From: Patescibacteria group bacterium
GTDB lineage: Bacteria; Patescibacteriota; Patescibacteriia; JACRDY01
Assembly (NCBI GenBank): GCA_041650515.1
Contig: JBAZLA010000005.1
Coordinates: 2,034 to 66,033, forward strand
DNA length: 64,000 nucleotides
Direction of reading: 5' to 3'
Below the pieces are notes generated by a model, which saw only the letters and a list, made by a program, of their open reading frames with translations, ran no database searches and was not told the origin of the DNA. The position numbers and the translations under genes are program-made. Shown here piece after piece: positions 41,244 to 59,414 of the stretch; within the stretch, counting starts at the first letter, position 1; every line of letters begins with the position of its first letter.

Positions 41244-42024
41244 CTAGGTATTTGGCAAAATATTTTAGCCAGCTTTTAATATGTTCGCGACTAGTTTTAT
41301 TAATAAAACCCCAAATCCAGGATGTTTCGGCGGATGATCGTTGGTGGTAGTGGACTACTTCAGCATCGGCGAAATAGACCACCCGGTAGTCGTTTTCCCA
41401 AAAACGGCGGCAGTAGTCAACATCCTCGAAATACATAAAAAATCTTTCGTCAAAGAGACCAATTTTGTCCATCGCTGCTTTGCGAATAAACAAACAACCA
41501 CCCAGGAGCCAATCCACTTCCCTATTTTCTTTATGGTCCCAGTCCATCATCAAATATTTATAAACTAGATTGCGAGCGAACGGCAGTTTACCTAAGAAAG
41601 TGCGACGATAAAAGGGCATCATAAAAGTTGGGAAACGATAGCAGGAATATTGCATCGTGCCGTCAGGATTAATCAGTTTTGGTCCAACAATCCCCACTTC
41701 GGGCCGGCCATCCATGTAAACAATTATTTTATCTATTTCATTAGTTAAAATAGCAATATCTGGGTTGAGTGTTAGAATATAGCGGCCGGTAGCTTTTTTT
41801 AATGCTAAATTATTGCCACCGGCGTAGCCTAGGTTTTTTGGTGATTGAATAAATTTAATTTCTGGAAAGTCCTTTTTTATCATTTCGCCGCAACTGTCGC
41901 TAGGGTTATTATCAGTAACGATGACTTCGTAGTCTAATTTTAGATTCAAAAGTCGGATGCCCTTGAGGCACTGGCGGAGTAAACCCTTACTTTTATAATT
42001 TAAGATGACGATTGAGAGGTCCAT
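41224..42024 (-). CDS. glycosyltransferase family 2
   Basis: LSIVILNYKS..., DNNPSD (DxD-like) and GT-A fold motifs. Confidence 0.8.
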   Translation of the reverse strand: MDLSIVILNYKSKGLLRQCLKGIRLLNLKLDYEVIVTDNNPSDSCGEMIKKDFPEIKFIQSPKNLGYAGGNNLALKKATGRYILTLNPDIAILTNEIDKIIVYMDGRPEVGIVGPKLINPDGTMQYSCYRFPTFMMPFYRRTFLGKLPFARNLVYKYLMMDWDHKENREVDWLLGGCLFIRKAAMDKIGLFDERFFMYFEDVDYCRRFWENDYRVVYFADAEVVHYHQRSSAETSWIWGFINKTSREHIKSWLKYFAKYLGAKLPR

Positions 42025-42079
42025 AATAATAGTTGAAAGTTGTCGACTTTACGAATTTTATAACTTTATAACTTGTTAC

Positions 42080-43132
42080 TTACTTAAACCATTGTCTTAT
42101 TGCTTGGTTATTAATTTGACGCATTTTTTTGACTTGTTTTCGTTTAACTAGAGTTTGAGGTATAAATTTTAGACCCTTGATTAACATTTTTAGAGTGGCG
42201 GTTTCTAATATTAACACATAACCAATTTTTTTCAATTCATAGCCTAATATCCAAGGTAAATTGATAAAAAAATTACTCAATGATTCGTTTTTTAATAAAG
42301 TTAACCAATGGTTGCGATATGATAGTCGGTTAACAAATTTAGATTTGCGTCGTCGTTCTTTAATAGTTTTAAAATTATTGGCTCGGGCGCTGCCAAAACC
42401 ACTACGGTAGTGGTAGGCTTCAGCCGTCGGGACATATAATGCCGGATAGCCGGCTAACTGCAATCGCCAGGCTAAATCAACGTCATCCTTATACATAAAG
42501 AAATTTTCATCCAGATATTCATAATATTCCGCATCTTGACTCAGTTGAGATGATTTTTGGGGCCGCGCGATTTTGATTTTAGTTGCGGCTAGGGCCGTTC
42601 GACGATAAAGAACTAGATTACCCGAAATGCCAAAAACCGATTCGGTCTTAGAGTATTGACCCTTATCTTGTTCGCCTGCTCCTCGATCATAGAAACGGCG
42701 TGATTTAGTAGCAGCGATTCCTGCCGAGTCAATAATCTCTGGCTTGAGCGAGATATTATGGTCTTCTTGGAGACTAATTTTAAAGGTTTTACCGCCAAAA
42801 CTGCCAGCTTGGGGGTTTTGGTCGGCGATTTTAACTAGATTTTCCAAAAATGGCGTCGCTAGGACAACATCTTGGTTACAAAGCAAAATATATTCACTGT
42901 CCCAAAATTTGATTGCTTGATTATTAGATTTACAAAAACCTAAGTTTTTAAAATTTTGTAGGATGGTCACTTCCGGATAATTGGCTTTGATAAATTCTGT
43001 CGTTCCATCGTCTGAGGCATTATCCACGATTAGAACTTTAAAATCTTTAAAGGTTTGACTAAAGATTGATTTTAAACAGTCCTCAATATAACGACGGCCG
43101 TTCCAAGTGATGATGTTGATGGATACTTTCAT
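42080..43132 (-). CDS. glycosyltransferase family 2
   Basis: VSINIITWNGRRYIEDCLKSI...VDNASDDGT GT-A signature. Confidence 0.8.
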   Translation of the reverse strand: MKVSINIITWNGRRYIEDCLKSIFSQTFKDFKVLIVDNASDDGTTEFIKANYPEVTILQNFKNLGFCKSNNQAIKFWDSEYILLCNQDVVLATPFLENLVKIADQNPQAGSFGGKTFKISLQEDHNISLKPEIIDSAGIAATKSRRFYDRGAGEQDKGQYSKTESVFGISGNLVLYRRTALAATKIKIARPQKSSQLSQDAEYYEYLDENFFMYKDDVDLAWRLQLAGYPALYVPTAEAYHYRSGFGSARANNFKTIKERRRKSKFVNRLSYRNHWLTLLKNESLSNFFINLPWILGYELKKIGYVLILETATLKMLIKGLKFIPQTLVKRKQVKKMRQINNQAIRQWFK

Positions 43133-43277
43133 AGGGAGGATAGAAAATTATTGATTGCAGTTTTGACAGGTAGACATATTTAGATAGTATGCGGGGCGCG
43201 GTATGCAGTATGCAGGAATTAAATGCCACAACTAATGGGAATTAAACCCTGCATACTACATACTATGACCTGCATAC

Positions 43278-44942
43278 TTAATAAATCTCCTTCTGGTAAC
43301 ACTCCTCGCAGTAGACTTTCTCCTCGCGGTCCGGAGCATAGGTGGTTTCGAATTTATTCTTGCAGCCAGGGTTCATGCAGGTGCGGTTATAAAGCCTACG
43401 TGGGTTGCGGAGCTTCATCCTCGCCAGACGTCGACATTCAAAACATTTTTTTGGCAAAGGATAATTGTTCTTCTTATAAAAATCTAGCTCTTGCGCGATG
43501 ATTTTATAATTTTTGTGGCAATTCTCGCAGGCTAAAATTTCTTGGGTAATATCTGCCAAAATTTCTTTAATGTCGTCTGATAGTTGCTCCAGTCTGATTG
43601 TCTCTTTACCGTAAGTCCCTGGCAAATTATCTTGCCACGACCAACCTTTAGCTAAGGTTTGTTCTTTAGTTAATGGGAACCATAGTTGCGCTATGGTTTC
43701 ATTATAACCAAAGGGACTATGATTAATGGGGAAAAATTCACCATATTCGCCAGTGCTTTTCATTTTATCAATTATTTTGTCTCTTAATTGTTTATATTCC
43801 TGTTCTTTATATTTTTTATTCAAAATACAGAATTCTCTTTTCCGCAAACCAACGGAACCAAAACTGTCCTTAGTACTATAGCATTCAATACAATAATTTA
43901 GATTAGCAACTTTTCTGATACAATTGTAACTAAATAATACTCTATTAGTATCCTCACCGATCATTGCTCCTTCGTAGACCAATTCTGCATTCAAACCAAA
44001 CTGGTAAACGTCGAAACAATCTTTAGATTTGTATGACAATTGGCTGCAATATCCGGAGCTCTCTATTTCGCTACAATCAAAACATGACTGGACGTTAAAA
44101 CTATTATATAAATAATTGCCTGAAGAATTTTGGACTTTATTGCTTTGAGCATAACGCCAGATATGGTTTTTTTGTAATTTTAAATATTTATCCCAAATTT
44201 CTTTAATCTGCCGGTGTGAACCAATATTAGTCTCTTTCAATTTTTCTTGGTAATCTTTCTCGCTTAATTGTTTATTTAGAAAACAATAATTCTTCTGTCG
44301 CAAGCCAACACATAGAAAGCAGTCGTTGCAACCGGCGCAATCTCGTAAAAAGTAACTATTGGCACACTTAATACAGTCTTGACTCCAAGCTAAATGATAA
44401 CAGTCATGAATATCAACACATTCATAACAAAGTTCAGAGTCAAAACAATTATAAATATCCATCGAGTCTTTTGATTTTTTTACTCCATAACCATAATAGC
44501 AATCTTCGTTATAATCGGCGTGAAAAAGCATATAACAGTTTTTATCCAAACCGGCGTGGTGAGTGTAATCACTATTGATGCTTCTACTATCACCACTGAC
44601 ACATTGGTGCGGCACGATTAGATCCAATTCGTGAATTTGCCCTAGAATGGAGCGAGAAAAATCTATTTCTTTACCGTAATTCAATGGTTCCCAACTATCC
44701 TCCCACCAACATTGCAAGCAATAAACCTTACGGGGGTTATTCGAAGAAAATTCACTAATAATACTCTTGCTGCATAAATCACATTTACGGGGATACAAAA
44801 TACCTTCATTGCACCAAGCCATGCGGCGCATTTCGCGGCACGGCGGACACCAAGTTGGCTCGGGCACATCTATCCGTTGATAAAATTCCTTATCCTGTGG
44901 ATAGATGGTAAACTCTTTTTGGCAGTTTTTACAATTAGGCAT
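43278..44942 (-). CDS. large cysteine-rich protein, paralog 3; function unknown
   Basis: Same twin zinc-ribbon + Cys-repeat architecture (MPNCKNCQKEF...CPPCREMRRMAW at the N-terminus; CENCHKNYKIIAQELDFYKKNNYPLPKKCFECRR at the C-terminus; TGEYGEFFP...SPFGYNET block). The ORF is open to 44951 (MIIMPNC); the start was placed at MPNC by analogy with the paralogs. Confidence 0.7.
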   Translation of the reverse strand: MPNCKNCQKEFTIYPQDKEFYQRIDVPEPTWCPPCREMRRMAWCNEGILYPRKCDLCSKSIISEFSSNNPRKVYCLQCWWEDSWEPLNYGKEIDFSRSILGQIHELDLIVPHQCVSGDSRSINSDYTHHAGLDKNCYMLFHADYNEDCYYGYGVKKSKDSMDIYNCFDSELCYECVDIHDCYHLAWSQDCIKCANSYFLRDCAGCNDCFLCVGLRQKNYCFLNKQLSEKDYQEKLKETNIGSHRQIKEIWDKYLKLQKNHIWRYAQSNKVQNSSGNYLYNSFNVQSCFDCSEIESSGYCSQLSYKSKDCFDVYQFGLNAELVYEGAMIGEDTNRVLFSYNCIRKVANLNYCIECYSTKDSFGSVGLRKREFCILNKKYKEQEYKQLRDKIIDKMKSTGEYGEFFPINHSPFGYNETIAQLWFPLTKEQTLAKGWSWQDNLPGTYGKETIRLEQLSDDIKEILADITQEILACENCHKNYKIIAQELDFYKKNNYPLPKKCFECRRLARMKLRNPRRLYNRTCMNPGCKNKFETTYAPDREEKVYCEECYQKEIY

Positions 44943-44949
44943 AATAATC

Positions 44950-44995
44950 AATTACGAATTACGAATTAATAACTAGATGAGCTAAATTCGTAATT
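44950..44995. repeat. AATTACGAATTACGAATTAAT tandem motif with downstream inverted copy (aattcgtaatt)
   Basis: Immediately upstream of the paralog-3 start. The inverted copy at 44985-44995 could form a stem-loop. Confidence 0.4.
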
Positions 44996-46505
44996 ATTCT
45001 TTGCTCCCCTCTTTTGGCGTGACCCAAAATCCGAGCCTAAATTTGCCGCCCAGCATTAGCCGGGTTTGGGCTTCGGTTGCTGGTATTGAGCCAAATACAA
45101 CCAGGGTTACTGGCAGCAGGATCCATTGGAGTAGCATGACCAAAATTTTGTGTTTAGCAATTTTATGAGGGCGGGCTGGCAATAAAGCCAGGCTCAGAAT
45201 AGCCGAAACTAAGATACCAAACATGGCGATCATCATTAAAATCTCCAGAACAAAAGGGGCATTTTGAGTGATCACCGTTGCTTTATCCGAACCTTTAGCC
45301 AGCCAAAGTGGCAATCGACCGAGAATAAAAATTAATATTGGTACGGTTGCCCAAGAGTACATTCCTTCGCCCAAATTCCAAATATAGTGAACCCGTTTTC
45401 TAAAAGGAATTAGTTTCCTTTTTTGGCGAAAATGCCACATCATATAGGGCATGTGTTCAACGCCCCAGGCCCAGCGGCGCTGTTGTTTATAAAGACTCTT
45501 AACGCCTTGCCACCAACTGTGGCCGCCAACAGTATTCATTGAGACCGGGACAAATATAGGTGTCACTGAGTATTTACCATTATAGTGGATAAAACCCTGT
45601 AGAAAGATTCTTGAGTCTTCGGTCACAATGTCTTTTTCCCAAAAACCAACATCCACCAGCATCTGCCAGCTCATCGAATGAGAAGAAAAGGTAAAAAGTC
45701 GTTCGGGTCGCATCAGATCAGTCATCAGCCAAAAAGTGGTGCCAAAGGCCGCCACCCGGATTACTGGGTCAGACTCCCACATGTTGTTATTATATAGGGC
45801 AATTGGTTGGTAGCTGGTTTTGGTCGGCTCGGGATGAGTGAGATATTTATAAGCCACGCAGGCAAAATATTGCGGATGGACACAGGTATCAATATCAAAA
45901 GAAGAAACAATAATATTTTCGTAGGGTATCTTTAGCTCCTCGTCGATTATTTTTTTAATCTGCCAACCAGCATAATTAATATTGGCGCCTTTGCCTGGAA
46001 TTTCGTCGGGCAAGTTTTGAGGGTGGGTAGTGACCAGTAGTTTTAGAAAACGGTGGCCATATTTTTCTTGAATCACGGCGGCTTTTTGTAAAAAGTCTTC
46101 TTTACCAGCACGCTCTTCGCCGGCTAATACCACGATAAATTTATCCAGCGGGTAGATATTTTGCGTTAAACCATCAAAGGTATTTTCCATTACTACTAAT
46201 GATTCTTTAACCATCGGCAAAAAAACAACATGATAGATTTTTCCCCAATCAGGTAGGGTTTTAACTTGTTGAAGCCAGTCGATCTTGATATCCTGACGGA
46301 ACTGTCGCCACGATAAAGCAATATAAAAGATAAAATAAGAAACACGAAAAACCCAGTATAAATCAAAAACGATGATAAAATAGATAACCCAAAGTGGCCG
46401 AACAAAAGAAAAAATGATTGCCAAAACAAAAGTCGCCCAAGTTAGGGTGGCCGGAACAGTCTCTAAAAAACGATAATATTTCCCCTTTTTGTCGGTTAGC
46501 TGCAT
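44994..46505 (-). CDS. membrane-embedded processive family-2 glycosyltransferase (cellulose/chitin-synthase-like, QxxRW)
   Basis: N- and C-terminal TM bundles flank a GT-A domain with D,D,D and QQRRWAWG motifs. Confidence 0.7.
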   Translation of the reverse strand: MQLTDKKGKYYRFLETVPATLTWATFVLAIIFSFVRPLWVIYFIIVFDLYWVFRVSYFIFYIALSWRQFRQDIKIDWLQQVKTLPDWGKIYHVVFLPMVKESLVVMENTFDGLTQNIYPLDKFIVVLAGEERAGKEDFLQKAAVIQEKYGHRFLKLLVTTHPQNLPDEIPGKGANINYAGWQIKKIIDEELKIPYENIIVSSFDIDTCVHPQYFACVAYKYLTHPEPTKTSYQPIALYNNNMWESDPVIRVAAFGTTFWLMTDLMRPERLFTFSSHSMSWQMLVDVGFWEKDIVTEDSRIFLQGFIHYNGKYSVTPIFVPVSMNTVGGHSWWQGVKSLYKQQRRWAWGVEHMPYMMWHFRQKRKLIPFRKRVHYIWNLGEGMYSWATVPILIFILGRLPLWLAKGSDKATVITQNAPFVLEILMMIAMFGILVSAILSLALLPARPHKIAKHKILVMLLQWILLPVTLVVFGSIPATEAQTRLMLGGKFRLGFWVTPKEGSKE

Positions 46506-46518
46506 GATAGTTATAGTA

Positions 46519-46794
46519 CTAAAATCTTATTTCAAAATTATTAAATTCGCCAGTACCCTCTTCCCAGTCACTCTGGACACTATCGATTGTGGCCAAGCGC
46601 GGGCCAATCTGGCAGTATGCCAATAGTTGGTTTAATTTTTCCTTCGGTCCCTCAGCTAATATTCTAACTGTGCCGTCGTCTTCGTTTTTAGCCCAGCCTA
46701 CTAGCCCTAGTCTAATCGCTTCTGTTTTAGCATTATAGCGGAAGGAAACTCTTTGAACTTGGCCAAAAATTGTTAGTTTGAGGCGTTTATTCAT
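46519..46794 (-). CDS. acyP: acylphosphatase
   Basis: 91 aa with the GQVQRVSFR motif (V-x-G-x-V-Q-G-V-x-F-R type). Confidence 0.8.
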   Translation of the reverse strand: MNKRLKLTIFGQVQRVSFRYNAKTEAIRLGLVGWAKNEDDGTVRILAEGPKEKLNQLLAYCQIGPRLATIDSVQSDWEEGTGEFNNFEIRF

Positions 46795-46849
46795 ACTGGC
46801 TATTATACTCTAAATGAAGCAAAAATCAATTAGTTAACGTTCTATTTTT

Positions 46850-47890
46850 TTGATTGCTATGTTAAAGTGTAGGTGTATGAAAGAAGCCGCATTTTATTCT
46901 TCAAAAGATAGTAGCAAGATCCAGTGCCAACTCTGCAATCATTATTGTTTAATTGGGCCAGATAAAACCGGAATTTGTAGGACTAGACAGAACAAGAGTG
47001 GTGTTTTATATTCTTTGATTTATGATAAAGTTTTTCACGGTCAGGTTGATCCGATTGAGAAAAAGCCGTTGTTTCATTTTCTACCCGGTAGCTATACCTA
47101 TGGCGTTTCAACCGTTGGTTGTAATTTTCGTTGTCAGCAGTGTTTGAATTGGTCTTTGTCCCAAGCTGATGGTCGGTCGGTAGCTATTTTGCCTGATGTT
47201 AGGCCAGAGGTTATTGTTCGTCAAGCTCAATTGGCAAATTGTCAGTCCATCTCTTTTACCTATAACGAACCGACTTTAAATACTGAATATAATTATGAGG
47301 TGATGCAATTAGCTCATCAGCAGGGATTAAAAAATGTTTGGGTTAGCAATGGTTATATGACGGCTGAAGTTTTAAAATATTTAGCGCCAGCTTTGGATGC
47401 TGTTAATATTGATCTCAAGGCTTTTACTCAAAAATATTATAAGACCGTCTGTCAGGCTAGGTTGCAGCCAATATTAGAGAATTTAAAATTGATTAAAAAA
47501 CTAAATATTTGGCTAGAGGTTACTACCCTGATAATTCCCACTCTTAATGATTCTGTTGCCGAGTTGAAAGCAATCGCCAAGTTTATCTTTAAAGAACTGG
47601 GTACCGATACGCCCTGGCACGTTTCCAAATTTTCACCTAAAATCTCTTGGCGTCTTCAACATTTATCACCAACATCAGAAGCTAAGATAAAAGAAGCCTA
47701 CCAGATTGGTAAGCAGGCGGGTTTAAAATATGTTTATGGTGGTAATGTCCAGAACACTCAATTGGAAAATACCTATTGCTCAGTTTGCAATCAATTGACG
47801 ATTAAGCGGGGTTTTTATAATCTAGAGCGGCAAGATATTAATGGTTGTTGCCCTAAATGTGGTAGCGGTTTAGACTTGATATTAGGCTAG
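46850..47890 (+). CDS. amrS: AmmeMemoRadiSam system radical SAM enzyme
   Basis: N-terminal Cys-rich lead-in (CQLCNHYC), radical SAM cluster motif CNFRCQQC and an AmrS-like C-terminus. The real start is probably Met10 (MKEAAFY, 46877). Confidence 0.85.
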   Translation: MIAMLKCRCMKEAAFYSSKDSSKIQCQLCNHYCLIGPDKTGICRTRQNKSGVLYSLIYDKVFHGQVDPIEKKPLFHFLPGSYTYGVSTVGCNFRCQQCLNWSLSQADGRSVAILPDVRPEVIVRQAQLANCQSISFTYNEPTLNTEYNYEVMQLAHQQGLKNVWVSNGYMTAEVLKYLAPALDAVNIDLKAFTQKYYKTVCQARLQPILENLKLIKKLNIWLEVTTLIIPTLNDSVAELKAIAKFIFKELGTDTPWHVSKFSPKISWRLQHLSPTSEAKIKEAYQIGKQAGLKYVYGGNVQNTQLENTYCSVCNQLTIKRGFYNLERQDINGCCPKCGSGLDLILG

Positions 47891-47940
47891 AAATACCTAA
47901 AGATTTTTGCTATAATACAAGAAAGGAAATAAGTATATTT

Positions 47941-49338
47941 ATGTTGAATAAAAAACAAAAAATAAAAAGCGCCATTTTTGCCTTATTTAGCCTATTGTTA
48001 GTGGCGGCGCCAGTTGTGGCGGCTGATTTTAACCCCAATTACCTCATTTCCGACGAAGAATTGCGAGACAAAGACGCTATGACCGACATAACGATCCAAA
48101 AATTTTTAGACGGCCAATCGGGCACCTTAGACACTTATACCTGTCTAGCTCAAGGCAAAGATCAAAATGATAATCCAATCACCGAACGGCAGGTTACTGC
48201 CGCTCAGGCTTTTTACGAGATTGCTCAAAGGTGGAATATTTCTCCTCGGTTTTTGTTAGTTTTAGTACAAAAAGAACAAAGCTTGATCACTGATAATACG
48301 CCAAAGCAGTCTCAATACGATTGGGCAACCGGCTATGCTGTTTGTGATGGTTGTTCAACTAGTGATCCGGCTATTCAGCGTTGGCGGGGTTTTTATAAAC
48401 AAGTTAATAGCGCCGCAGCTCAGTTTGATTACTATCTACAGAATCCCAGTGGTTTCCGTTTTAAAAAGGGTTTAACCTATACTATTGATGGTAAAAGCGT
48501 TACGCCAGCTAATGATACTACCGCTGCGATGTATAATTATACGCCTCATTTACACGGCAATCAGAATTTTAATGAGATTTGGACGAATTGGTTTACCAAG
48601 CGTTACCCCGACGGTTCTCTACTCCAGGTAAAGGGCGAGGCTGATGTTTGGTATATCCAGTATGACACTCGACGAATTATTAAGTCCAAAGCTGTGCTTT
48701 TGAGTCGATTTAATATAGAACAAATTATCCAAGTTAGTAAATCTGATTTAGAGGCTTACCCGACAGGTTGGCCAATCAGTTTAGCCAACTATTCTTTAGT
48801 TCGCTCACCTCATGGTTCTATCTACTTGATTGTTGATGATGAAAGACGATTAATCACTTCTGACGCAGTTTTTAAAAAGATTGGTTGGAATCCTGAGGAG
48901 GTAATGGATGTGGCTGACGTTGATCTAAATAATTATTTTGAAGGCTTGCCAATTACCGAAAATAGCGTTTATCCGCAAGGGGCTTTGTTAAAGAATAAAG
49001 CAACTGATAATATTTATTTTGTCAAAGATGGTGTTCGCTATCCGATTTTAGCCCAGGAAGTTATCGCCATTAATTATCCCGGTCGTAAGGTAGTCACTAT
49101 TAGCCCAGAAGAGCTAGAAGATTATCAGCTAGGACCGCAGATAAAGATTAAAGATGGGGTGTTATTAAAAACAGAAACCATGTCCCAAGTTTACGTCGTC
49201 TCTGGTGGTAAAATTCGTTGGATCGCCGATGAAAAAACTTTTAATGATCTTGGTTATAGATGGTCAAATATTATTACCATTCCAGACACCGTTTTTGTTC
49301 TATTAGAGCAAGGTGAGATGCTAATGTTTGCTGATTAA
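47941..49338 (+). CDS. secreted protein with N-terminal globular domain and four ~45-aa C-terminal repeats (putative cell-wall binding/hydrolase)
   Basis: Signal peptide MLNKKQKIKSAIFALFSLLLVAAPVVAA. Four repeats of the pattern x-Y-x-V-x-x-G-x-R-x-I...LGY/GW (VWYIQYDTRRIIK..., SIYLIVDDERRLIT..., NIYFVKDGVRYPIL..., QVYVVSGGKIRWIA...). Confidence 0.6.
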   Translation: MLNKKQKIKSAIFALFSLLLVAAPVVAADFNPNYLISDEELRDKDAMTDITIQKFLDGQSGTLDTYTCLAQGKDQNDNPITERQVTAAQAFYEIAQRWNISPRFLLVLVQKEQSLITDNTPKQSQYDWATGYAVCDGCSTSDPAIQRWRGFYKQVNSAAAQFDYYLQNPSGFRFKKGLTYTIDGKSVTPANDTTAAMYNYTPHLHGNQNFNEIWTNWFTKRYPDGSLLQVKGEADVWYIQYDTRRIIKSKAVLLSRFNIEQIIQVSKSDLEAYPTGWPISLANYSLVRSPHGSIYLIVDDERRLITSDAVFKKIGWNPEEVMDVADVDLNNYFEGLPITENSVYPQGALLKNKATDNIYFVKDGVRYPILAQEVIAINYPGRKVVTISPEELEDYQLGPQIKIKDGVLLKTETMSQVYVVSGGKIRWIADEKTFNDLGYRWSNIITIPDTVFVLLEQGEMLMFAD

Positions 49339-50149
49339 TAAATTATTTTGTTATATGTCTTTAGTTTTTGCTGGTATTTGTCCCCACCCGCCTTTACTTA
49401 TACCCAATATTGGTAAGGACAATCTCGATAAAATTAATAATACTGTTGGAGCCTTAAAACAGCTTGAGCAGATTTTATACGCCAGTAAACCAGAAACACT
49501 GATTGTTATTTCGCCACATGGAGTGGTCCTTTATGATTCTTTTTTGATTAATCTCGCCGACTCGTATCAGAGTGATTTTGAGCAGTTTGGTGATTTTGGC
49601 ACTAAGCTAAAGTTTAAGTGTGATTTTAGTTTTATTGAGAGTCTTCGTTGTGAATCCGATAACCACCAGATTCCTCTCAATATTACCTCCGAACCGAAGT
49701 TAGATCATGGTGCGACTGTTCCGCTTTATTATTTAACCCAGCATTTACCAGAAATTAAGATTGTGCCCGTTAGTTATTCTTTATTGGATTATCAAACTCA
49801 TCTTAAATTCGGTGAAGCTTTAAAAGACCAAATCTTTAATAGCAATAAACGGGTGGCGATTGTAGCTTCGGGTGATCTTTCTCATCGTTTGACTAAAGAC
49901 GCGCCGGCTGGTTATACGCCAGCGGGTAAAGAATTTGATGAAAAATTAATTAATTCATTAAAAAATCGGGATTTAGATGGTTTATTAAAAATTGATAGCA
50001 AATTGATCGAAGCGGCTGGTGAGTGTGGTTTGCGCTCGATTCTGATTTTATTAGGCGTTATTAAAAAAATGAATTATCAAACAGAGGTTTTAAGCTACGA
50101 AGGGCCGTTTGGTGTTGGTTATTTGGTTGCTAATTTCAAATTTAAATAA
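49328..50149 (+). CDS. amrB: AmmeMemoRadiSam system protein B (MEMO1 family)
   Basis: Memo-like fold motifs (HGVVLYDSF, SGDLSHRL). Probable start at the internal Met at 49355. Confidence 0.8.
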   Translation: MLINKLFCYMSLVFAGICPHPPLLIPNIGKDNLDKINNTVGALKQLEQILYASKPETLIVISPHGVVLYDSFLINLADSYQSDFEQFGDFGTKLKFKCDFSFIESLRCESDNHQIPLNITSEPKLDHGATVPLYYLTQHLPEIKIVPVSYSLLDYQTHLKFGEALKDQIFNSNKRVAIVASGDLSHRLTKDAPAGYTPAGKEFDEKLINSLKNRDLDGLLKIDSKLIEAAGECGLRSILILLGVIKKMNYQTEVLSYEGPFGVGYLVANFKFK

Positions 50150-50150
50150 T

Positions 50151-50678
50151 ATGAATCCCTATTCTCGGCTAGCACGTCAAGCAGTCGAGGAACATTTTGA
50201 TACTGGCAAAACTCTAAAACCACCGGCCGATTTGCCGATGGAATTACTGGAGAAAAAAGCCGGAGTATTTGTAACTATTTATAATCAAAAGGAATTACGT
50301 GGTTGTATCGGCACATTTTTACCAACGCAGAAAAATATCGCCCAAGAGATTATTGCTAATAGTATTTCCGCTGCCACAGTTGACTATCGTTTTCAGCCGA
50401 TTAGTCTAGAGGAGTTACCGCAACTTAGTTATGAGATTAGTATTTTAACTGAGCCAGAGTTGGTTCAATCATTAAAAGATCTAGATCCTAAAAAATATGG
50501 CGTCATAGTCCGTTCGCGTCATCGTCGTAGTGGTTTATTATTGCCTGATCTTGATGGTGTCGATACAATCGAGCAGCAATTATCAATTGCCGCGAGCAAA
50601 GGTGGAATAGATTCAGATTCTGATCCAATTGAGATTTATCGATTTATGACTATTAAATATCGCAATAAAGATAAATAG
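50151..50678 (+). CDS. amrA: AmmeMemoRadiSam system protein A (AMMECR1 domain)
   Basis: AMMECR1 signature GVFVTIY...LRGCIGTF. The start was placed at the ATG 1 nt after the amrB stop. Confidence 0.8.
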   Translation: MNPYSRLARQAVEEHFDTGKTLKPPADLPMELLEKKAGVFVTIYNQKELRGCIGTFLPTQKNIAQEIIANSISAATVDYRFQPISLEELPQLSYEISILTEPELVQSLKDLDPKKYGVIVRSRHRRSGLLLPDLDGVDTIEQQLSIAASKGGIDSDSDPIEIYRFMTIKYRNKDK

Positions 50679-50679
50679 T

Positions 50680-52578
50680 ATGCTAGCGGATATTATTCCG
50701 GCAATCCGTTTACCCCGTAATTTAACCACCTTTACTTATAAAGTTAAACCTGAGCAGGAAAAACAAATCAAAGTTGGACAGATAGTCCAAATTTATTTTC
50801 GTCAAAAAAAAGTTCAAGGTTTAGTTATTAAGGTTAGACAAGATGCTAGTCAGCGATTGAGTTTTCCACTTAAGCCGATTGAAGCTATTGTCGATTTTAA
50901 TCCCCTCTTTACCACTAGCCAATTTGAGTTAAGCCAATGGCTCAGCAACAATTATTTTGTTGCCCCAAGTTTGGTGATTAAATCAATGTTGCCACAAATT
51001 CCGCGACATAAAACGGCTGTTAACCGTTTGCCAGCTATTGGTTTAATTAGTTTTACTGCTCAAACCGTTCCCCTACCCAACTTAAATCAGAAGGTATTAT
51101 TAAAATATTTTACTGATGCCTATAAAAATAATTTTATTTACTCATTGATTGTTCAGACAATTAAAAACAATAAACAGGTGCTGATATTGGTGCCCCAAGT
51201 TGATGATTTGATCGGAGTTGGTGGTTATTTAGATAACAATTTAAGAAATCTGGCAGTGTTTTTGACTAATAATTTGAACAAAAACACATATTATCAAGCT
51301 TGGCAAAAAATTATTAGTGGTCAGGCTAAGATCATTATTGGCACTCGTTCAGCCGTTTTTTCCCCGTTGGTTAATTTAGGATTAATAGTTTTAGAAAATG
51401 AGCATGATTCGAGTTATAAACAGTGGGATCAAAATCCGCGGTACGATGCGCGAGAAGTTAGCTTGGAGTTAGCTAGGTTGGTTAGAGCTAAGATAGTTTT
51501 TGCTAGTTACGCGCCACGAGTAGAGACATATTATTTAGCCAAAAATAAAAATGATTTTGGGTATATTGAGGAAAAAAACAATTCGCGCCAAGTTATTCCG
51601 ATTGACCTAGCAATGGAAATAAAATCTGGCAATTATTCTTTATTATCAGAACAATTAACTCAAAAGATTATTGAGGCTAAAGTAAATAAACAAAAAGTGG
51701 TCTTATACCTTAATCGTCGAGGGGTAGCTAGTTTTGTTGTTTGTGGTGATTGCCAATATGTTTTTACTTGTCATAATTGTCAGACTGCCTTGCCCTATCA
51801 CCGTGATGGTAAATTAGTTTGTCATCACTGTGGGTTTGATAAAAATTTGCCAGCCAGTTGTCCTAATTGCCAGGGTCAAAATTTTAAGTTTCCAGGTAGA
51901 GGGACACAAAAGCTAGAAAACCAATTGCAAACAATTTGGCCGGGTTGCCGGATATTAAGATTAGATGGCGATGTTGATTTAAAAAAAATCGATCAACAAA
52001 AGATTGATTTAGCTGATATTTATTTAGGAACCGAGATGGTTTTTAAAAAAGTTAATTGGCAATCTGTCGGAGTAGTCGCTATTTTATTTATGGATAATAT
52101 TTTTTATGTTCCAGAGTTTAGAAGTGCTGAGAAAATTTGGCAGATATTAAATTTGTTATTGACTAAATCTATTTTTAGCTTGACTAGTAAAATTTATTTT
52201 CAAACTTTCAAAATAGACCATCCGATTATCCGCAATTTTATTGCTGGCCAAAGTGACTTATTCTATCAGCGGGAAATAGCTGAACGTCAGTTGGGTGGCT
52301 ATCCGCCGTTTGGTTATTTAGCTAAATTAATTTATCGGCACTCTAGCCGATCAATCGCCGAAAATAGAGCTAACTCTTTATATCAAGAGTTGACTAAAAT
52401 AGCCGAAAAAGATAAAATGCTACTTCAGATTAGTCCCCCAGCTTTGGCTTATACTCAGAAGATTCGTGGTCGTTTTGAATATAAAATAATTCTTCGATCT
52501 AGTGTGGTAATGAATAATATTTTAAAGAATATACCCGATGATTGGCTGATAGACGTTCAACCCGAGAGTTTATTATAA
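50680..52578 (+). CDS. priA: primosomal protein N' (PriA) homolog with degenerate Walker A
   Basis: PriA 3'BD N-terminus, helicase motifs IIGTRSAVF and VLENEHDSSYKQ (DExH), and the Cys-rich Zn module CGDCQYVFTCHNCQTALPYHRDGKLVCHHCG...CPNCQG. The expected GxGKT P-loop is absent (IYSLIVQTIKNNKQ in its place). Confidence 0.75.
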   Translation: MLADIIPAIRLPRNLTTFTYKVKPEQEKQIKVGQIVQIYFRQKKVQGLVIKVRQDASQRLSFPLKPIEAIVDFNPLFTTSQFELSQWLSNNYFVAPSLVIKSMLPQIPRHKTAVNRLPAIGLISFTAQTVPLPNLNQKVLLKYFTDAYKNNFIYSLIVQTIKNNKQVLILVPQVDDLIGVGGYLDNNLRNLAVFLTNNLNKNTYYQAWQKIISGQAKIIIGTRSAVFSPLVNLGLIVLENEHDSSYKQWDQNPRYDAREVSLELARLVRAKIVFASYAPRVETYYLAKNKNDFGYIEEKNNSRQVIPIDLAMEIKSGNYSLLSEQLTQKIIEAKVNKQKVVLYLNRRGVASFVVCGDCQYVFTCHNCQTALPYHRDGKLVCHHCGFDKNLPASCPNCQGQNFKFPGRGTQKLENQLQTIWPGCRILRLDGDVDLKKIDQQKIDLADIYLGTEMVFKKVNWQSVGVVAILFMDNIFYVPEFRSAEKIWQILNLLLTKSIFSLTSKIYFQTFKIDHPIIRNFIAGQSDLFYQREIAERQLGGYPPFGYLAKLIYRHSSRSIAENRANSLYQELTKIAEKDKMLLQISPPALAYTQKIRGRFEYKIILRSSVVMNNILKNIPDDWLIDVQPESLL

Positions 52579-52592
52579 TTTTTATTTTAGAT

Positions 52593-53066
52593 ATGTTAAA
52601 AATTTTAGTTGATCCTAACCCCAAACTGAGAAAAAAGTCTAAGCGGGTGACTAAGAACGAGCTAGGTAGCGCCAGTTTCCAGGATTTTATCCGCCAACTG
52701 TCGACAACAATGCAAGAAGCCGACGGTATTGGTATTGCTGCTCCGCAAGTCGGTCAGAATATTAGGTTGATTGTTATTAATACTGATCAGGGTCCCCAGC
52801 CGATGATCAATCCGGTAGTATTGTGGAAATCGTTAACTAAAGAGTTAGGTGAAGAAGGGTGTTTATCTGTGCCTGGTATTTTTGGTTTAGTTAAGAGAGC
52901 AAAAATTATTCTTTTGACCTATGTAGATTGGGCTGGCAAACGTCATCAGATTAGGGCTAAAGGGTTATTTGCTCGCGTTATACAGCATGAGGTTGATCAT
53001 TTAGATGGTATTCTTTTTATTGATAAAGCTGAAAAAGTAATTAGTAATAAAGATTTAAAGCCATAA
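52593..53066 (+). CDS. def: peptide deformylase
   Basis: Motifs GIGIAAPQVG, EGCLSVPG and HEVDHLDG. The ORF is open from 52542; the start was placed at MLKILVD. Confidence 0.9.
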   Translation: MLKILVDPNPKLRKKSKRVTKNELGSASFQDFIRQLSTTMQEADGIGIAAPQVGQNIRLIVINTDQGPQPMINPVVLWKSLTKELGEEGCLSVPGIFGLVKRAKIILLTYVDWAGKRHQIRAKGLFARVIQHEVDHLDGILFIDKAEKVISNKDLKP

Positions 53067-53068
53067 TT

Positions 53069-53953
53069 ATGGATTGGCAGAAAGCTAAAATTATTTTTCT
53101 AGGAACCCCCAATTTTGGGGTGCCAATTTTATTTAATTTGATAAAGAGCCATTATAATATTATCGCAGTTATTAGTCAGCCAGATCGACCGGTTGGCCGT
53201 CAGCAAATAATCGAAGTGACGCCAGTCAAAAAAGTAGCCCTAGAGAATAAAATATTAGTTGAACAATTTGAAAGTTTGCGTACGGCGAACGCTGTTAATT
53301 TTATTAAGAAGAATGAGCCTGATTTACTAGTGGTAGTGGCCTATGGCCAGATTATCCCCCAGACGATACTAGATATACCCAAATATGGTTGTTTAAATAT
53401 CCACCCATCATTATTACCTAAATATCGTGGTGCTTCCCCAGTGGCTGCGGCCATTTTAAACGGTGATCAAGAAACCGGCGTGACTATTATAAAACTAGAC
53501 GACAAAATTGATCATGGGTCAATTGTCAGCCAAAGTGTGTTTACTATCCTAGAAGATGACAATACTGAGAGTTTGGAAAATAGTTTAGCTTGTGAAGGTG
53601 CGGAATTATTAGCTAAAGTTTTACCTGATTATTTAGCCGATAAAATTATTGCTCAACCACAGGATGATTCTTTGGCTACTTATACTAAAATCTTAACCAA
53701 AAATGATGGCCAGATTGATTGGCAAAAAACCCCCTTGGAGATTGATTGCCAAATTAGAGCTTTATACCCTTGGCCAGGCACCTGGACAACTCATCACGGG
53801 AAGAATATCAAAATAATCCGCGCCCACATTGAGGCCCAGAAATTGAAAATTGATCTAATGCAACCGGCAGGTAAATTGCCGATGAGTTATAAGGAATTTG
53901 TTAATGGCTACGGTCAGTTAGAATCGGATAAAGTACTTAACAATAGCAAATAG
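53069..53953 (+). CDS. fmt: methionyl-tRNA formyltransferase
   Basis: N-terminal formyltransferase domain (IIFLGTPNFGVPIL, HPSLLPKYRGASP) and a C-terminal tRNA-binding domain. Confidence 0.9.
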   Translation: MDWQKAKIIFLGTPNFGVPILFNLIKSHYNIIAVISQPDRPVGRQQIIEVTPVKKVALENKILVEQFESLRTANAVNFIKKNEPDLLVVVAYGQIIPQTILDIPKYGCLNIHPSLLPKYRGASPVAAAILNGDQETGVTIIKLDDKIDHGSIVSQSVFTILEDDNTESLENSLACEGAELLAKVLPDYLADKIIAQPQDDSLATYTKILTKNDGQIDWQKTPLEIDCQIRALYPWPGTWTTHHGKNIKIIRAHIEAQKLKIDLMQPAGKLPMSYKEFVNGYGQLESDKVLNNSK

Positions 53954-55344
53954 CCGATGCCCAACGGATGGTTGAGATAGGGCGAGAAAATATTAGTGAC
54001 TATAATACCAATTAGGCCGACTAACAAACCCACGGCCATTTTTTGTTGACTTAATCTTTTAATAATTTGCCAAATCAGTAGTAAGTAGGTTACTAATCCA
54101 GCCAGGCCGATTTTAAGTAGAATATCTAGATAACCCCATTCAAATGCATAAGTGGTATAGCGTCCATCTGGCGCTTTTTCTAATATTCGAGGGTCACGAG
54201 AAAAATAAGTTACGGTGGTCCCAAAACCGGAGCCGATGATTGGGTGTTTCATTATGGCTAAACCGAGCGGTTTTAATTGATTAAAACGACTAACGCCAGC
54301 TGCTTCAGTTAGATCAGTCAAACGTCTAGATAGCAAATCGCCGGTTCCCTGGCCGGCTAAAACAATAATTAAACCAAATTCACAAATAGTGATCATAGCC
54401 AGAATGCCCAGCCAGGTGGCAATTTTGCGCCAGTTGATTTGGTATTTAAATAGTATCCAGACGATTAGTGCTATTAAAGAGATTATTAAACCCAGCCAAA
54501 AACTTCTGGAAAGCGAAAGATAAACCGTAAGAAGTGAGATGGTAATTAGTAGCCAGGTAATTTTTTTATTTTTTGATGTTTGGTTATCCCCGAGTACAAT
54601 ATTACTGGCTAAAATTAAAAAACCAATCAGACTATAAATTTGGCTTTGTAAAAAAATTCGCCAAAGATTATTACCACTATAGGTGATTTCACCCCAGCGT
54701 AAATCTCTAATAAATTTATAAAGATGACCAGCTAACCAATTAATGTTCTGAGTAAAAATTATGAAAGAGAAAAAAGTTATTAAAAAATTTATGGTTATCC
54801 CAGCACCCAGTAGCACTAAAATCTTGGGAGTTTTGTCTTTACCTAAAAAATCATAGAAAGGTAAAATATAAAAAAAGTAGATCCAAGCGTTGCTATCAAA
54901 AAATATATTGGCGAAGGTATTTTGGCGGACAAAACCCCAGATTACTCCCCAGAGTATAAATATTCCCAGGATAAGATAATATTTTTTTAAACTTTTTTCT
55001 CTAATCCGTAGCAAGGGTTGTAGTTTTTTTGTTCTAATTAAATTAATAATCAATTTAGCCAACCAGACTGACATAATTATCAAAAAAATGCTGATTCTAA
55101 TCGGAATTTGTAGGCCGTCAAGATTAAAAGCTAGAATTTGGCCAAAAGAGCCAATAAACAATTCACCCAGGACGATATAAAGTCCGTATTCTAAATTATA
55201 AATCGCGAGGAGTAATATGGCTAAATTAACGGCTAACCAAACTGGGTTATTTAGGCTGTTTTGCCAGAAAGTAAGAATCGACAACCCAGTAATTATGGTT
55301 AATCCTAGTAAACTTTGAAAATAAAATTTTTTATCAAAATTCAT
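53914..55344 (-). CDS. O-antigen ligase / polymerase-like polytopic membrane protein (Wzy_C family)
   Basis: ~12 TM helices with a periplasmic loop carrying the LSLSRSFWLGLI motif typical of the O-antigen ligase family. Confidence 0.6.
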   Translation of the reverse strand: MNFDKKFYFQSLLGLTIITGLSILTFWQNSLNNPVWLAVNLAILLLAIYNLEYGLYIVLGELFIGSFGQILAFNLDGLQIPIRISIFLIIMSVWLAKLIINLIRTKKLQPLLRIREKSLKKYYLILGIFILWGVIWGFVRQNTFANIFFDSNAWIYFFYILPFYDFLGKDKTPKILVLLGAGITINFLITFFSFIIFTQNINWLAGHLYKFIRDLRWGEITYSGNNLWRIFLQSQIYSLIGFLILASNIVLGDNQTSKNKKITWLLITISLLTVYLSLSRSFWLGLIISLIALIVWILFKYQINWRKIATWLGILAMITICEFGLIIVLAGQGTGDLLSRRLTDLTEAAGVSRFNQLKPLGLAIMKHPIIGSGFGTTVTYFSRDPRILEKAPDGRYTTYAFEWGYLDILLKIGLAGLVTYLLLIWQIIKRLSQQKMAVGLLVGLIGIIVTNIFSPYLNHPLGIGYLLLLSTLSDSN

Positions 55345-56208
55345 TTATAAATCTTTATTCTTTTTTTTAATTTTAAATAATTGGACTAACCAAGCTAGAA
55401 CTAGACTCAAGCCAGCGCCGGGTAGTAAAATTAAATAAGCGCCAATCCCCTGTTGTTTTTTAAAGTAGTATAATAGACTTTTAACAAACATTTTTTGTTT
55501 AGTCAGGGGTAGATATTTGTCAGCCGTGTAACCTTTTAGATGAATTATCTGAGCAATCGGAGTATAAATAATTTGCCAACCAGCATTTTTAGTACGCTGA
55601 CAATAGTCAACGTCATCAAACCAAAAAAAAGTATTTTGATCTAATCCGCCGATTTGGTTGACCACCGCTCGTCTGATCAACATAAAAGCGCCCATGATTT
55701 GGTCGACTTCTGCCTCGTGGTTATAGTCAAAGTCTGAATAAAGATAATGCTTAATTGCATTAGGGAAAAAATTGGGTAATTTAGTCAAAATAACCATTTG
55801 ATCCCAGAGTCGCGGGTTACGACGAACCGAGGGTTGTAAAGTCTGGTCGATATTTAAGAGTTTACACCCAGCCAGGCCAGCCTGAGGGTGTACGCGCATA
55901 TAACTAATCATTGTTGGTAGGCAATTAGGCAAAACTTCTGTGTCAGAATTTAGAAGTAGGATAAAATCACCAGTTGATATTTTGATCCCTTGATTATTGG
56001 CAAAAGCGTAACCAGTATTAATATTGTTGGTGATTATTTTAACCTGCGAGAATCGGTTTTTAGTCATCTGGATACTATCGTCAGTTGAAGCATTGTCAAT
56101 CACAATAATCTCAAAATCAAGATTAGCAGTATTATTATAAATCGAAGCTAGACATTTTTTCAATAACTCGCAAGTATTACGGTTAACAATAATGATTGAT
56201 AAATCCAT
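55345..56208 (-). CDS. glycosyltransferase family 2
   Basis: LSIIIVNRNT...VIDNASTDDS GT-A signature. Confidence 0.8.
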   Translation of the reverse strand: MDLSIIIVNRNTCELLKKCLASIYNNTANLDFEIIVIDNASTDDSIQMTKNRFSQVKIITNNINTGYAFANNQGIKISTGDFILLLNSDTEVLPNCLPTMISYMRVHPQAGLAGCKLLNIDQTLQPSVRRNPRLWDQMVILTKLPNFFPNAIKHYLYSDFDYNHEAEVDQIMGAFMLIRRAVVNQIGGLDQNTFFWFDDVDYCQRTKNAGWQIIYTPIAQIIHLKGYTADKYLPLTKQKMFVKSLLYYFKKQQGIGAYLILLPGAGLSLVLAWLVQLFKIKKKNKDL

Positions 56209-56212
56209 AGAA

Positions 56213-56911
56213 TTAGCTATATTTTCCCTGTCGGTCGTTTATTCTAACTTTTAAAACTTCAACCAATGTTTTGAAGTAGTCTTTAGCTTTAACTTTAGTG
56301 TCAGGATCATTGAGCCAACGGACGCCGACTTCTTTTATTTTATAACCTTTCTTTTCGGCCAAATAAAGAAGCTCAAAGTCAAAACCCCAGCGATCAATAG
56401 TCTGTTGATTAAAAATATCCAAAACGTCACGTTTAAATATTTTAAAACCACATTGAGTGTCTTTTATCCCTAGCCCTAAGATCAGTTGAATTAGTTTGTT
56501 ACCTAAGATACCCAGATTCCGTTTGTACCATGGTTGTTTAATCACAACGTTGGAATCAGGCAAAGCGCGGGAACCAATAACGATATCAAATTCATTGAGA
56601 TATTTTTTCAATTTATTAAATTCTTCGATTGGTGTAGATAAATCAGCGTCGGTAAATAAAATGATTTCACCGCTAGCGGCTTGGCAACCAATTTTTACCG
56701 TATAACCCTTGCCTTTATTGTGGTTATTAGTTAAGAGTTTAATTTCTGCACGATTAATTAAAATTTTTAAAGTTTGGTCAGTGCTACCATCATCAACGAC
56801 GATAATTTCGTAATCTAAATTTTGATTAGCAAAAAAAGTAGCTATTCTATCTAGAGTTTGGTTGATAACCGTGGATTCGTTGTAGCAAGGGATAACTACT
56901 GATATTTGCAT
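56213..56911 (-). CDS. polyprenol-phosphate sugar synthase-like GT2 (DPM1/ArnC-like)
   Basis: ISVVIPCYNES...VVDDGSTDQT, ~230 aa soluble GT2. Confidence 0.8.
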   Translation of the reverse strand: MQISVVIPCYNESTVINQTLDRIATFFANQNLDYEIIVVDDGSTDQTLKILINRAEIKLLTNNHNKGKGYTVKIGCQAASGEIILFTDADLSTPIEEFNKLKKYLNEFDIVIGSRALPDSNVVIKQPWYKRNLGILGNKLIQLILGLGIKDTQCGFKIFKRDVLDIFNQQTIDRWGFDFELLYLAEKKGYKIKEVGVRWLNDPDTKVKAKDYFKTLVEVLKVRINDRQGKYS

Positions 56912-57087
56912 AGGCGTGGTGGTTGACTATATTTTAGCTAATTTTAATTAAAAAATAAAGGCCCAGAGTGAGGCCCCTATTTTTCTGCTCCAACCTGGAT
57001 TACATTTTTTTCTTGTATTTGACTAGAAAAATTAGCGCCGCTACTGAGACTACTAGCAAAATAAGGAAAAAAACAGTTTGCATAGTT

Positions 57088-58290: not shown

Positions 58291-58292
58291 AG

Positions 58293-59414
58293 TTATTCGC
58301 TTAGTAGTTTTTCTAATTTTTTAGCCTCTATCTCCCAACTAAAATTTTTTGCCCACCGTCTGCCCTGCTCACCTATTTTTTCAGTTAGATCATTATTAGT
58401 TAGTAGACTAACGACTTGTTCGCTGATTTTTGTAATATCGGTTGGATTAATTTGAAAGCCAGTTTGACCATTAACAACTGCTTCAGCTTCTCCACCCTGA
58501 TCGCCACTAATTGTCGGCTTGCCAAAGCTATTAGCTTCTAAATAAACCAGACCGAATCCCTCAACGTCATAGTTATTAATATTACGCGAGGGCATAATGA
58601 ATAGATCGGCAATTTGATAATACGCGGGTAATTCTTGGTCGGTTATAAAGCCAGTAAAGAGCACATTTTCTTCTAAATCAAGCTGTTTTGTTAATTCTAG
58701 CAAATTTTCTTTGTTCTGGCCATCACCAACAATTAAGTAAGCCGTCTCTGGTACGGTGGCTAAGATTTTGGGCAGGGCTCGGATTACTTGATCATGGCCT
58801 TTTCGTTTGACCAGCCGGCCAACTGTTAAAATTATTTTTTTGTTTTCTAGATTGTATTTTTGTTTGATCTTTTGGCAGTCGTGTTGTGATGGTAGTTGGT
58901 GAAAGGCTGGACAAGGATAGATTTTAGTTATTTTGTTTTCGGGGACGCCTAATTCTAGGATCAGATTTTTAGTAAAATTACTGTTGACGGTAACTTGGTT
59001 AGCATTATTAAGAATTCTTTTACCTAATAATTTTTTGCGAGTATTTGAGTATAAAATAAGAGCTACATCCATGCCGTGGCTGTTAACGATATAAGGTAAT
59101 TTTAATAGTCGGCTGACTAGATAGACTGCGGTGCCAACCGGCAAGGGTTGGGCGACCCAGATAATTTCAATTTTTTCTGTTTTAATAATTTTGTAGATAT
59201 GCCAGAGCATTGGTAACCATTTAGGCCAAAACGCCCAAAATAAACTTCGTCGATAGATTTTACAACTAGATATATCGTCGTGGTAATTTTTTATTTTTGG
59301 CGCCAAAACTACTAAACTCTCCCTTGGTAAATTAGCGGCTAAATTAGCTAAATAGCGTGCCACACCGCCACTTTGGGGTAAAAAATCAATTGTTACTAGT
59401 AGGGTTTTTTTCAT
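58293..59414 (-). CDS. glycosyltransferase family 4
   Basis: VEGFGLVYLEANSFGKPTISGDQGG E-x7-E motif. Confidence 0.85.
   Translation of the reverse strand: MKKTLLVTIDFLPQSGGVARYLANLAANLPRESLVVLAPKIKNYHDDISSCKIYRRSLFWAFWPKWLPMLWHIYKIIKTEKIEIIWVAQPLPVGTAVYLVSRLLKLPYIVNSHGMDVALILYSNTRKKLLGKRILNNANQVTVNSNFTKNLILELGVPENKITKIYPCPAFHQLPSQHDCQKIKQKYNLENKKIILTVGRLVKRKGHDQVIRALPKILATVPETAYLIVGDGQNKENLLELTKQLDLEENVLFTGFITDQELPAYYQIADLFIMPSRNINNYDVEGFGLVYLEANSFGKPTISGDQGGEAEAVVNGQTGFQINPTDITKISEQVVSLLTNNDLTEKIGEQGRRWAKNFSWEIEAKKLEKLLSE

Follow-up and report, generated by a model that had tools for sequence, protein, structure and literature searches.

An intact LigB-type AmmeMemoRadiSam trio interleaved with the gene of a predicted secreted, wall-enzyme-like protein in a conserved gene order of Patescibacteria

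Analysis of a 64-kilobase (kb) stretch of DNA, called the window below, from a member of the Patescibacteria (Falkow-/Uhr-/Magasanik-/Kuenen-/Buchananbacteria group), by way of its open reading frames (ORFs) and scans of the window proteins with hidden Markov models (HMMs) of Pfam and NCBIfam, located seven ORFs in tight packing at 46850-53953 on the + strand: amrS, a gene here named X, amrB, amrA, priA, def and fmt. The amr genes encode the radical SAM (S-adenosylmethionine) protein AmrS, the LigB-type protein AmrB and the AMMECR1-family protein AmrA of the AmmeMemoRadiSam (Amr) system; ORFs and HMM assignments agree with an earlier, preliminary description of this DNA that all three genes are present, intact and in one orientation. 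The three lie within 3.8 kb, and since X (1.4 kb) parts amrS from amrB the cluster is not contiguous. The starts of amrS, amrB and amrA (ATG 46877, ATG 49355 and ATG 50151) were picked by orthologue lengths, and the following features were delimited.

46877-47890, + strand: amrS; the ORF opens with TTG at 46850, and the likely start, ATG 46877, gives 337 amino acids (aa), the orthologue length
47888-47916, + strand: promoter-like element of X, TAGAAA, 17-nucleotide (nt) spacer, TGcTATAAT (extended -10)
47941-49338, + strand: X, 465 aa
47941-48024, + strand: predicted signal peptide of X, residues 1-28, cleavage predicted after VAA
48025-48606, + strand: predicted N-terminal lysozyme-like domain of X, resembling glycoside hydrolase family 73 (GH73), residues 29-222
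48616-49338, + strand: C-terminal region of X with four predicted EccB/PlyCB-like beta-alpha repeats, residues 226-465, plus stop codon
49355-50149, + strand: amrB, LigB-type, 264 aa, ATG start, the same length as its orthologues
50151-50678, + strand: amrA, AMMECR1 family, 175 aa, ATG start
50680-52578, + strand: priA
about 52593-53066, + strand: def
53069-53953, + strand: fmt

The gaps between these genes are 50 nt from amrS to X, 16 nt from X to amrB (an alternative amrB start, TTG 49328, would give an 11-nt overlap with X), 1 nt from amrB to amrA, 1 nt from amrA to priA, about 14 nt from priA to def and 2 nt from def to fmt. The amrB stop at 50147-50149 and the amrA start at 50151 bear out the 1-nt spacing reported earlier; however, since all gaps from X to fmt are at most 16 nt and that between amrA and priA is also 1 nt, tight spacing is not specific to the amr genes. 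NCBI lists an identical AmrA from a Patescibacteria metagenome-assembled genome (MAG) as 'AmmeMemoRadiSam system protein A', and an identical X on the same contig as a 'hypothetical protein'.

Gene order around X was surveyed by tblastn with the window proteins on the best 80 GTDB species-representative loci, with about 8 kb of flank per locus; overall, relatives of X were detected in at least 571 GTDB species. Of the 73 loci with enough sequence, 65 (89%) have a LigB-type amrB on the same strand at most 400 nt past X, and two more have it at about 1 kb; between the X stop and the equivalent amrB start the median gap is 15 nt. A LigB/Memo gene also lies directly downstream of X in 6/6 looked-up homologues (42-63% identity), and in Magasanikbacteria in which X is fused to a Peptidase_S11 domain (X-S11) the order is X-LigB-priA-def-fmt in 3/3 loci, with X-LigB gaps of 1-9 nt and neither amrA nor amrS seen in these three. 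The preliminary description had taken X for an unusual insertion in this genome and had proposed looking for a recurrent secreted repeat protein in others; the first view is contradicted by these counts, and the repeat protein does recur, lineage-wide.

The presence of the other two amr genes varies. Among the loci with at least 3.5 kb downstream of X, amrA is present in 10/64, and the 50 loci with full flanks comprise 9 with amrS, amrB and amrA, 6 with amrS and amrB, 32 with amrB only and 3 with none; amrA never occurs without amrS in these 50 (Fisher p 2e-6). No neighbourhood with amrS or amrA but without amrB was found in the clade, and the minimum number of changes that parsimony requires on a neighbour-joining tree of X is 14 for amrS and 7 for amrA, as against 3 for amrB. 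X-amrB is the stable link, and amrS and amrA are the variable parts. In the window and in L001, L009, L065, L067, L071, L074 and L083 the amrS gene immediately precedes X, and in other loci it is 2.8-7.4 kb upstream, mostly with clpB between; the order amrS-X-amrB-amrA is repeated in L001, L009, L067 and L083, with X identities of 39-63%.

Regarding the wider neighbourhood, across 81 loci ClpB is encoded just upstream of X in 50, and Def, Fmt and PriA are neighbours in 58, 57 and 37, respectively, with LigT, WecG, GltX and PcsB further upstream in the conserved block; clpB is absent from the window. The order X-amrB-(amrA)-(priA)-def-fmt is conserved across loci, and in four loci X is followed directly by priA, without amrB. 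Many of the loci with this Patescibacteria-type X-amrB-priA-def-fmt block are in MAG records titled 'uncultured Gammaproteobacteria bacterium' (L009, L013, L015, L022, L025-L030 and others), a title that is probably a mislabel.

Regarding the three Amr proteins, AmrS scores 314.9 bits on TIGR04337 (cut-off 220) and 74 bits on PF04055, and contains the CX3CX2C motif as CNFRCQQC at residues 82-89 and CxxC pairs at both ends (CQLC at 17, CSVC at 301 and CPKC at 325). Assignment as a PflA-type glycyl-radical activase was rejected, the best activase model, YjjW, reaching 61.8 bits against a cut-off of 250, and the earlier naming of this radical SAM gene as amrS thus stands. AmrA scores 132.8 bits on TIGR04335 (cut-off 99) and 154 bits on PF01871 and carries the cysteine motif LRGCIGT, with Cys52. 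AmrB matches PF02900 (LigB) over its full length with 161.5 bits and PF01875 (Memo) with 46.7 bits, and on TIGR04336 it reaches 43.7 bits (cut-off 26), aligned over the C-terminal part only (residues 124-257); for comparison, a Memo-type AmrB (L129) has 319.5 bits on TIGR04336 and 266 bits on PF01875. The HMM assignment that had been suggested as a check therefore places all three proteins above the curated cut-offs, AmrB weakly, and by these profile scores AmrB is a LigB-type member of the LigB/Memo superfamily outside the Memo clade, not the MEMO1-like protein it had been called. The top hit of AmrB to solved structures was the putative extradiol dioxygenase TK2203, and no MEMO1 structure was among the matches to PDB sequences; against the characterised class III extradiol dioxygenase equivalogs the best score was 51.5 bits (HpaD_Fe, cut-off 316).

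The putative metal-site residues of AmrB are well kept, H11, H55, H177 and C224 being conserved in >90% of 71 orthologues and E223 in 57/71. In the 59 orthologues without a neighbouring amrA these five residues are retained in 45-55, depending on the residue, which suggests that amrB has some role independent of amrA and amrS nearby. Position 118 (nt 49706-49708), the His of an LDHG motif, is His in 12/12 orthologues with a neighbouring amrA and Tyr in 19/59 without, and this split may reflect a functional shift after partner loss.

The X protein opens with KKQKIK, a hydrophobic helix (residues 4-21 in the model) and VAA|DF, and the A-x-A / FDPN junction is conserved in an alignment of 50 X homologues, which points to export by a Sec signal. 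An AlphaFold2 model built from this alignment (mean predicted local distance difference test score, pLDDT, 93.2; predicted template modelling score, pTM, 0.80) gives the N-terminal domain a lysozyme-like catalytic fold with fold matches to GH73 autolysins, and the repeat region an EccB-type repeat fold with matches to EccB/PlyCB. The motifs LQKEQSL and YNYTPHxxGN are invariant, the former containing E112, which all 50 homologues share and which stands at the end of the helix 102-113. By the secondary structure of the model four repeats start at residues 227, 286, 348 and 408, and repeat pairs have weak sequence similarity (BLASTP E 5e-4); a DNA-level search for tandem repeats in X found none, the repeats being visible at structure level only. 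The length of 465 aa, the signal peptide and the four C-terminal repeats given for X in the preliminary description were thus retained, and the repeat period was corrected from ~45 to ~60 aa. No Pfam or NCBIfam model matched X, including Pfam Glucosaminidase, and a profile search against PDB sequences returned noise only, with no match at E below 0.3.

From its model, X would be an exported peptidoglycan glycosidase-like protein with E112 as candidate catalytic acid, held on the cell wall most likely by its repeats; its role is likely that of a housekeeping autolysin in wall remodelling or cell separation, and it may alternatively be a lytic transglycosylase or a non-catalytic binding protein. 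An independent tie of X to peptidoglycan comes from domain fusions (architectures in P0143, P0198, P0178, P0121 and P0245; loci L167-L169). In proteins of 740-870 aa, typical of Magasanikbacteria, the X module is joined to a Peptidase_S11 DD-carboxypeptidase, in some cases together with PG_binding_1, and in a 1033-aa protein it is combined with a Ser/Thr protein kinase, reminiscent of PASTA kinases; giant family members of 1423 and 3254 aa hold several repeat copies. The homologues of 740-870 aa were also considered as X-AmrB fusions and found to be X-Peptidase_S11 fusions. Model fold and wall-domain fusions agree with the earlier view that the intervening protein is secreted or cell-wall-associated. 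The family comprises 2,169 clusters at 50% identity (E 1e-10 or better). The guanine-plus-cytosine (GC) content over X is slightly raised (0.43 at 48000-48499 versus ~0.37 in the flanks).

Regarding transcription, the 50-nt gap between amrS and X contains TAGAAA, a 17-nt spacer and TGcTATAAT, then a AAAGGAAA ribosome-binding site, and the closest relative (L001) has a TTGCTAAAAT motif in the same place after the amrS stop. The pattern TGnTAnAAT was detected within 90 nt upstream of X in 26/79 loci, compared with 2.8% of random 105-nt windows (p 4e-21) and 0/71 upstream of amrB, and TAWAAT in 53/79, 21.6% and 12/71, respectively. As X has a conserved promoter-like element and amrB does not, amrB and amrA are probably read from the promoter of X with priA, def and fmt, X probably heading a transcript X-amrB-amrA-priA-def-fmt, while amrS would be a separate unit transcribed from the divergent region 46795-46876 and possibly reading through into X. 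Terminator prediction gave none on either side of X, and an Rfam scan of the window returned a single tRNA, with neither a riboswitch nor a leader close to the locus. The shared transcriptional context proposed in the preliminary description thus has to be refined: amrB and amrA probably share the promoter of X, and amrS appears to stand apart as a unit upstream.

Outside the X clade the Amr module has a different layout. In a reciprocal survey of 80 metagenome loci anchored on AmrA relatives (41-59% identity) X was found in 0/80. All three amr genes occur in 25 of these loci, of which 21 are compact (<3.2 kb) and arranged as amrS-amrB-amrA or amrB-amrA-amrS. Several of the anchored loci encode B-A fusions, LigB-type in L114, L130, L147 and L161 and Memo-type in L129; the LigB-type domains fused to AMMECR1 have the PHPP, SGDLSH, ECG and YEGPFGVGY motifs and adjoin amrS. 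Within Patescibacteria, Moranbacteria have a compact radical SAM-LigB-AMMECR1 module without X, radical SAM and LigB genes overlap in Minisyncoccales, also without X, and L089 is a further compact module without X. The earlier statement that the module is normally compact is thus supported by the metagenome loci, the Moranbacteria and the Minisyncoccales. Other Patescibacteria encode short LigB-type AmrB variants of 203-208 aa with an internal deletion (L089 3424-4044, L090 2945-3571 and L170 3931-4542), which directly follow amrS, with amrA 0.6-3.7 kb further on, past unrelated genes. Directly upstream of radical SAM-LigB in L170, a Minisyncoccales MAG, a 369-aa protein (1874-2983, +) has Pfam matches to TFIIB and Zn_Ribbon_TF; this TFIIB-type domain is of archaeal/eukaryotic type, on an otherwise bacterial contig with EF-P, ExoVII, UvrD and a Mur ligase.

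Around the amrS-fmt block the window has minus-strand surface-glycan genes on both sides (39387-46505 and 53914-60868), encoding five glycosyltransferases of family 2 (GT2), DUF4012, a Wzy_C/O-antigen-ligase-like protein, glycosyltransferases of families GT1 and GT4 and a Wzx/MurJ-like flippase; similar genes surround the block in L001, L167 and L168. An acylphosphatase gene (46519-46794, -; PF00708, 85 bits) is divergent from amrS and lies outside the conserved neighbourhood of the relatives. A 557-aa protein encoded at 43278-44951 (-) is very rich in cysteine, with many CxxC pairs, and its only match, to a treble-clef zinc finger, is weak (PF13451, 22.9 bits); in L001, too, a gene of similar length (556 aa, 1206-2876), without a Pfam match, precedes amrS-X. 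The genes ligT, wecG, gltX and that of a PcsB-like M23 peptidase are at 9087-13645 (+), ~33 kb from amrS, whereas in L001, L002 and L167 they are on the opposite strand, directly upstream of amrS or clpB-X; this displacement relative to relatives indicates a rearrangement or insertion at this point in this genome.

Taken together, the explanation that appears most probable is that an intact LigB-type Amr trio lies in an ancient, lineage-wide gene order (amrS, followed by X-amrB-amrA-priA-def-fmt) in which the linkage to X reflects operon history. According to this explanation X would have taken its place between amrS and amrB a single time, in the common ancestor of a large clade, where it has stayed since, other Patescibacteria keeping the compact amrS-amrB-amrA, with amrS and amrA later lost or moved repeatedly and tending to go together. 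AmrS would make the 5'-deoxyadenosyl radical, AmrB would supply a His/His/Glu(Cys) metal site and AmrA its conserved cysteine, the three cytoplasmic proteins presumably acting on one shared substrate, and X would take no part in this chemistry, being linked to it through its place inside a larger conserved housekeeping block. Having no promoter of its own and being read from that of X, amrB would be held to X as a pair, and since clpB, priA, def, fmt, ligT, wecG, gltX and pcsB are unrelated in function, this clade strongly conserves gene order in general; interleaving inside such a block therefore leaves a shared biochemical function unproven. The opposite expectation, that the module would simply be split by a recent odd insertion of a secreted repeat-protein gene through a mobile element or horizontal transfer, might draw on the compactness of the module elsewhere and on the slightly higher GC over X, but the repetition of amrS-X-amrB-amrA in four other loci, the recurrence of the X-amrB adjacency over 80 species-representative loci and the absence of repeats, an integrase or a tRNA flanking X and of an X paralogue in the window leave it hardly any probability, and a recent mobile-element insertion of X was rejected on the comparative data. 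The preliminary interpretation was thus half right, the interleaving being real and absent elsewhere, yet ancient, class-wide and not peculiar to this genome.

Several observations weigh against operon history as the whole explanation. The X-amrB adjacency is more conserved than any other adjacency of X (ClpB-X, for example, reaches 62%), it outlasts the loss of priA/def/fmt in L005/L014, L027 and L041 and changed upstream context in L168 and L169, and a functional pair would look alike; the predicted metal site of AmrB is kept in most of the 59 loci lacking a neighbouring amrA; the promoter and the co-transcription are deduced from motifs only; and X has no match to a GH73 sequence model, the equivalence of its catalytic residues to those of GH73 enzymes being a candidate assignment. 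A functional pair of X and LigB-type AmrB in a cell-envelope pathway, in which cytoplasmic AmrB processes or makes a compound tied to the wall chemistry of X (a muropeptide, an amino-sugar turnover product or a polyprenyl-linked precursor) with AmrS and AmrA as optional accessories, would account for the 15-nt median gap, for an adjacency kept when surrounding genes change and also in X-S11 lineages, for the missing promoter motif of amrB, for the retained metal-site residues and for the embedding of the block in surface-glycan genes. Burroughs et al. are said to have proposed, in 2019, an isoprenoid link for the Memo clade. Against such a pair, X is predicted to be exported and AmrB has no signal peptide, which would place them in different compartments; the functionally unrelated priA, def, fmt and clpB are kept in the same block; four loci pass from X directly to priA without amrB; LigB-type amrB is widespread without X, in compact or fused Amr modules; and inspection of the 150 best representatives and of 6 fused homologues showed no fusion of X to AmrB. 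Operon history is therefore preferred as the probable reading, and the functional pair is considered unlikely, if still the foremost of the alternatives.

It might also be argued that the LigB-type gene of this clade encodes an independent LigB-family enzyme and no Amr component, the trio being leftover co-location, since amrB stands without amrS and amrA in 32 of the 50 full-flank loci, its product is far from Memo-type AmrB on TIGR04336 (43.7 versus 319.5 bits), its top solved structure is TK2203 and not MEMO1, and position 118 differs with the presence of amrA. Yet the LigB-type domains of L114, L130, L147 and L161, which carry the motifs of this AmrB, are fused to AMMECR1 and adjoin amrS, compact amrS-LigB-AMMECR1 modules exist in other Patescibacteria, amrS and amrA within the clade occur only in neighbourhoods holding amrB, and AMMECR1 is on record as associated with, and in some cases fused to, a 'ring-opening dioxygenase' (PMC2034487). 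An independent enzyme is accordingly judged improbable and is placed behind the functional pair.

The human homologues AMMECR1 and MEMO1 are linked to disease; for the biochemical role of the trio of AMMECR1, Memo-LigB and radical SAM proteins, the literature searches yielded no functional study and nothing newer than comparative-genomics predictions. The locus indicates that a LigB-type B gene can persist over long evolution without A and S nearby, that A and S are gained and lost together, and that in one large group of reduced genomes B is probably expressed from the promoter of a cell-wall hydrolase-like gene. It also defines a large unannotated Patescibacteria family of predicted secreted wall enzymes combining a GH73-like domain with four EccB/PlyCB-like repeats. 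An extension of the functional pair to an entire class of Patescibacteria, placing the LigB/Memo arm in cell-envelope metabolism, is decidedly doubtful; if true, this arm would act on wall turnover products or lipid-linked precursors, which would provide the first concrete handle on the substrate of Memo/AMMECR1-type systems, and if the X-amrB link is not functional the locus is a clean case of operon history holding genes together. New findings are the structure-based identity of the X family, the conservation of a probable X-amrB operon and the repeated joint loss of amrS and amrA while amrB stays. The Amr system itself, annotated here, is already known, and because LigB-type partners of AMMECR1, including fusions, were noted in 2007 (PMC2034487) these are not new either.

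Compared with class III extradiol dioxygenases of the LigB family (e.g., HpaD) and T. kodakarensis TK2203 (PDB 5hee), AmrB shares the full-length PF02900 domain and the conserved His/His/His/Glu, but is far below every characterised equivalog cut-off (51.5 vs 316 for HpaD), has a Cys beside the Glu (ECG) as in Memo/AmrB and stands in an Amr context and not one of aromatic catabolism. X resembles EccB of ESX/type VII secretion and the phage lysin subunit PlyCB in its four tandem beta-alpha repeats of the same predicted fold and in its presumed extracytoplasmic location, and peptidoglycan binding has been proposed for this repeat fold (PMC4769845); it differs from EccB in lacking the central domain and the N-terminal membrane anchor architecture and in having its repeats joined to a lysozyme-like domain, and no ESX/type VII secretion genes were found among the window neighbours (amr, priA, def, fmt, glycosyltransferases, acylphosphatase) or in the related loci listed. 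The GH73 N-acetylglucosaminidase autolysins compared with the N-terminal domain were S. pneumoniae LytB, S. aureus AtlE, the Atl glucosaminidase domain and C. perfringens Acp, from which X differs in having no sequence match to Pfam Glucosaminidase or any PDB sequence and in carrying EccB/PlyCB-like repeats and not choline-binding, SH3b or GW repeats. A neighbourhood of AMMECR1, radical SAM and 'ring-opening dioxygenase' genes was described by Balaji & Aravind 2007 (PMC2034487). The locus agrees with the AmmeMemoRadiSam system (TIGR04335/04336/04337) in holding all three components co-oriented, with AmrS and AmrA well above curated cut-offs and a LigB-type partner known as a neighbour and fusion partner of AMMECR1, and differs from it in being non-contiguous, in having a LigB-type amrB and a peptidoglycan-hydrolase-like gene between amrS and amrB, and in belonging to a clade in most members of which amrB persists beside X without amrA or amrS.

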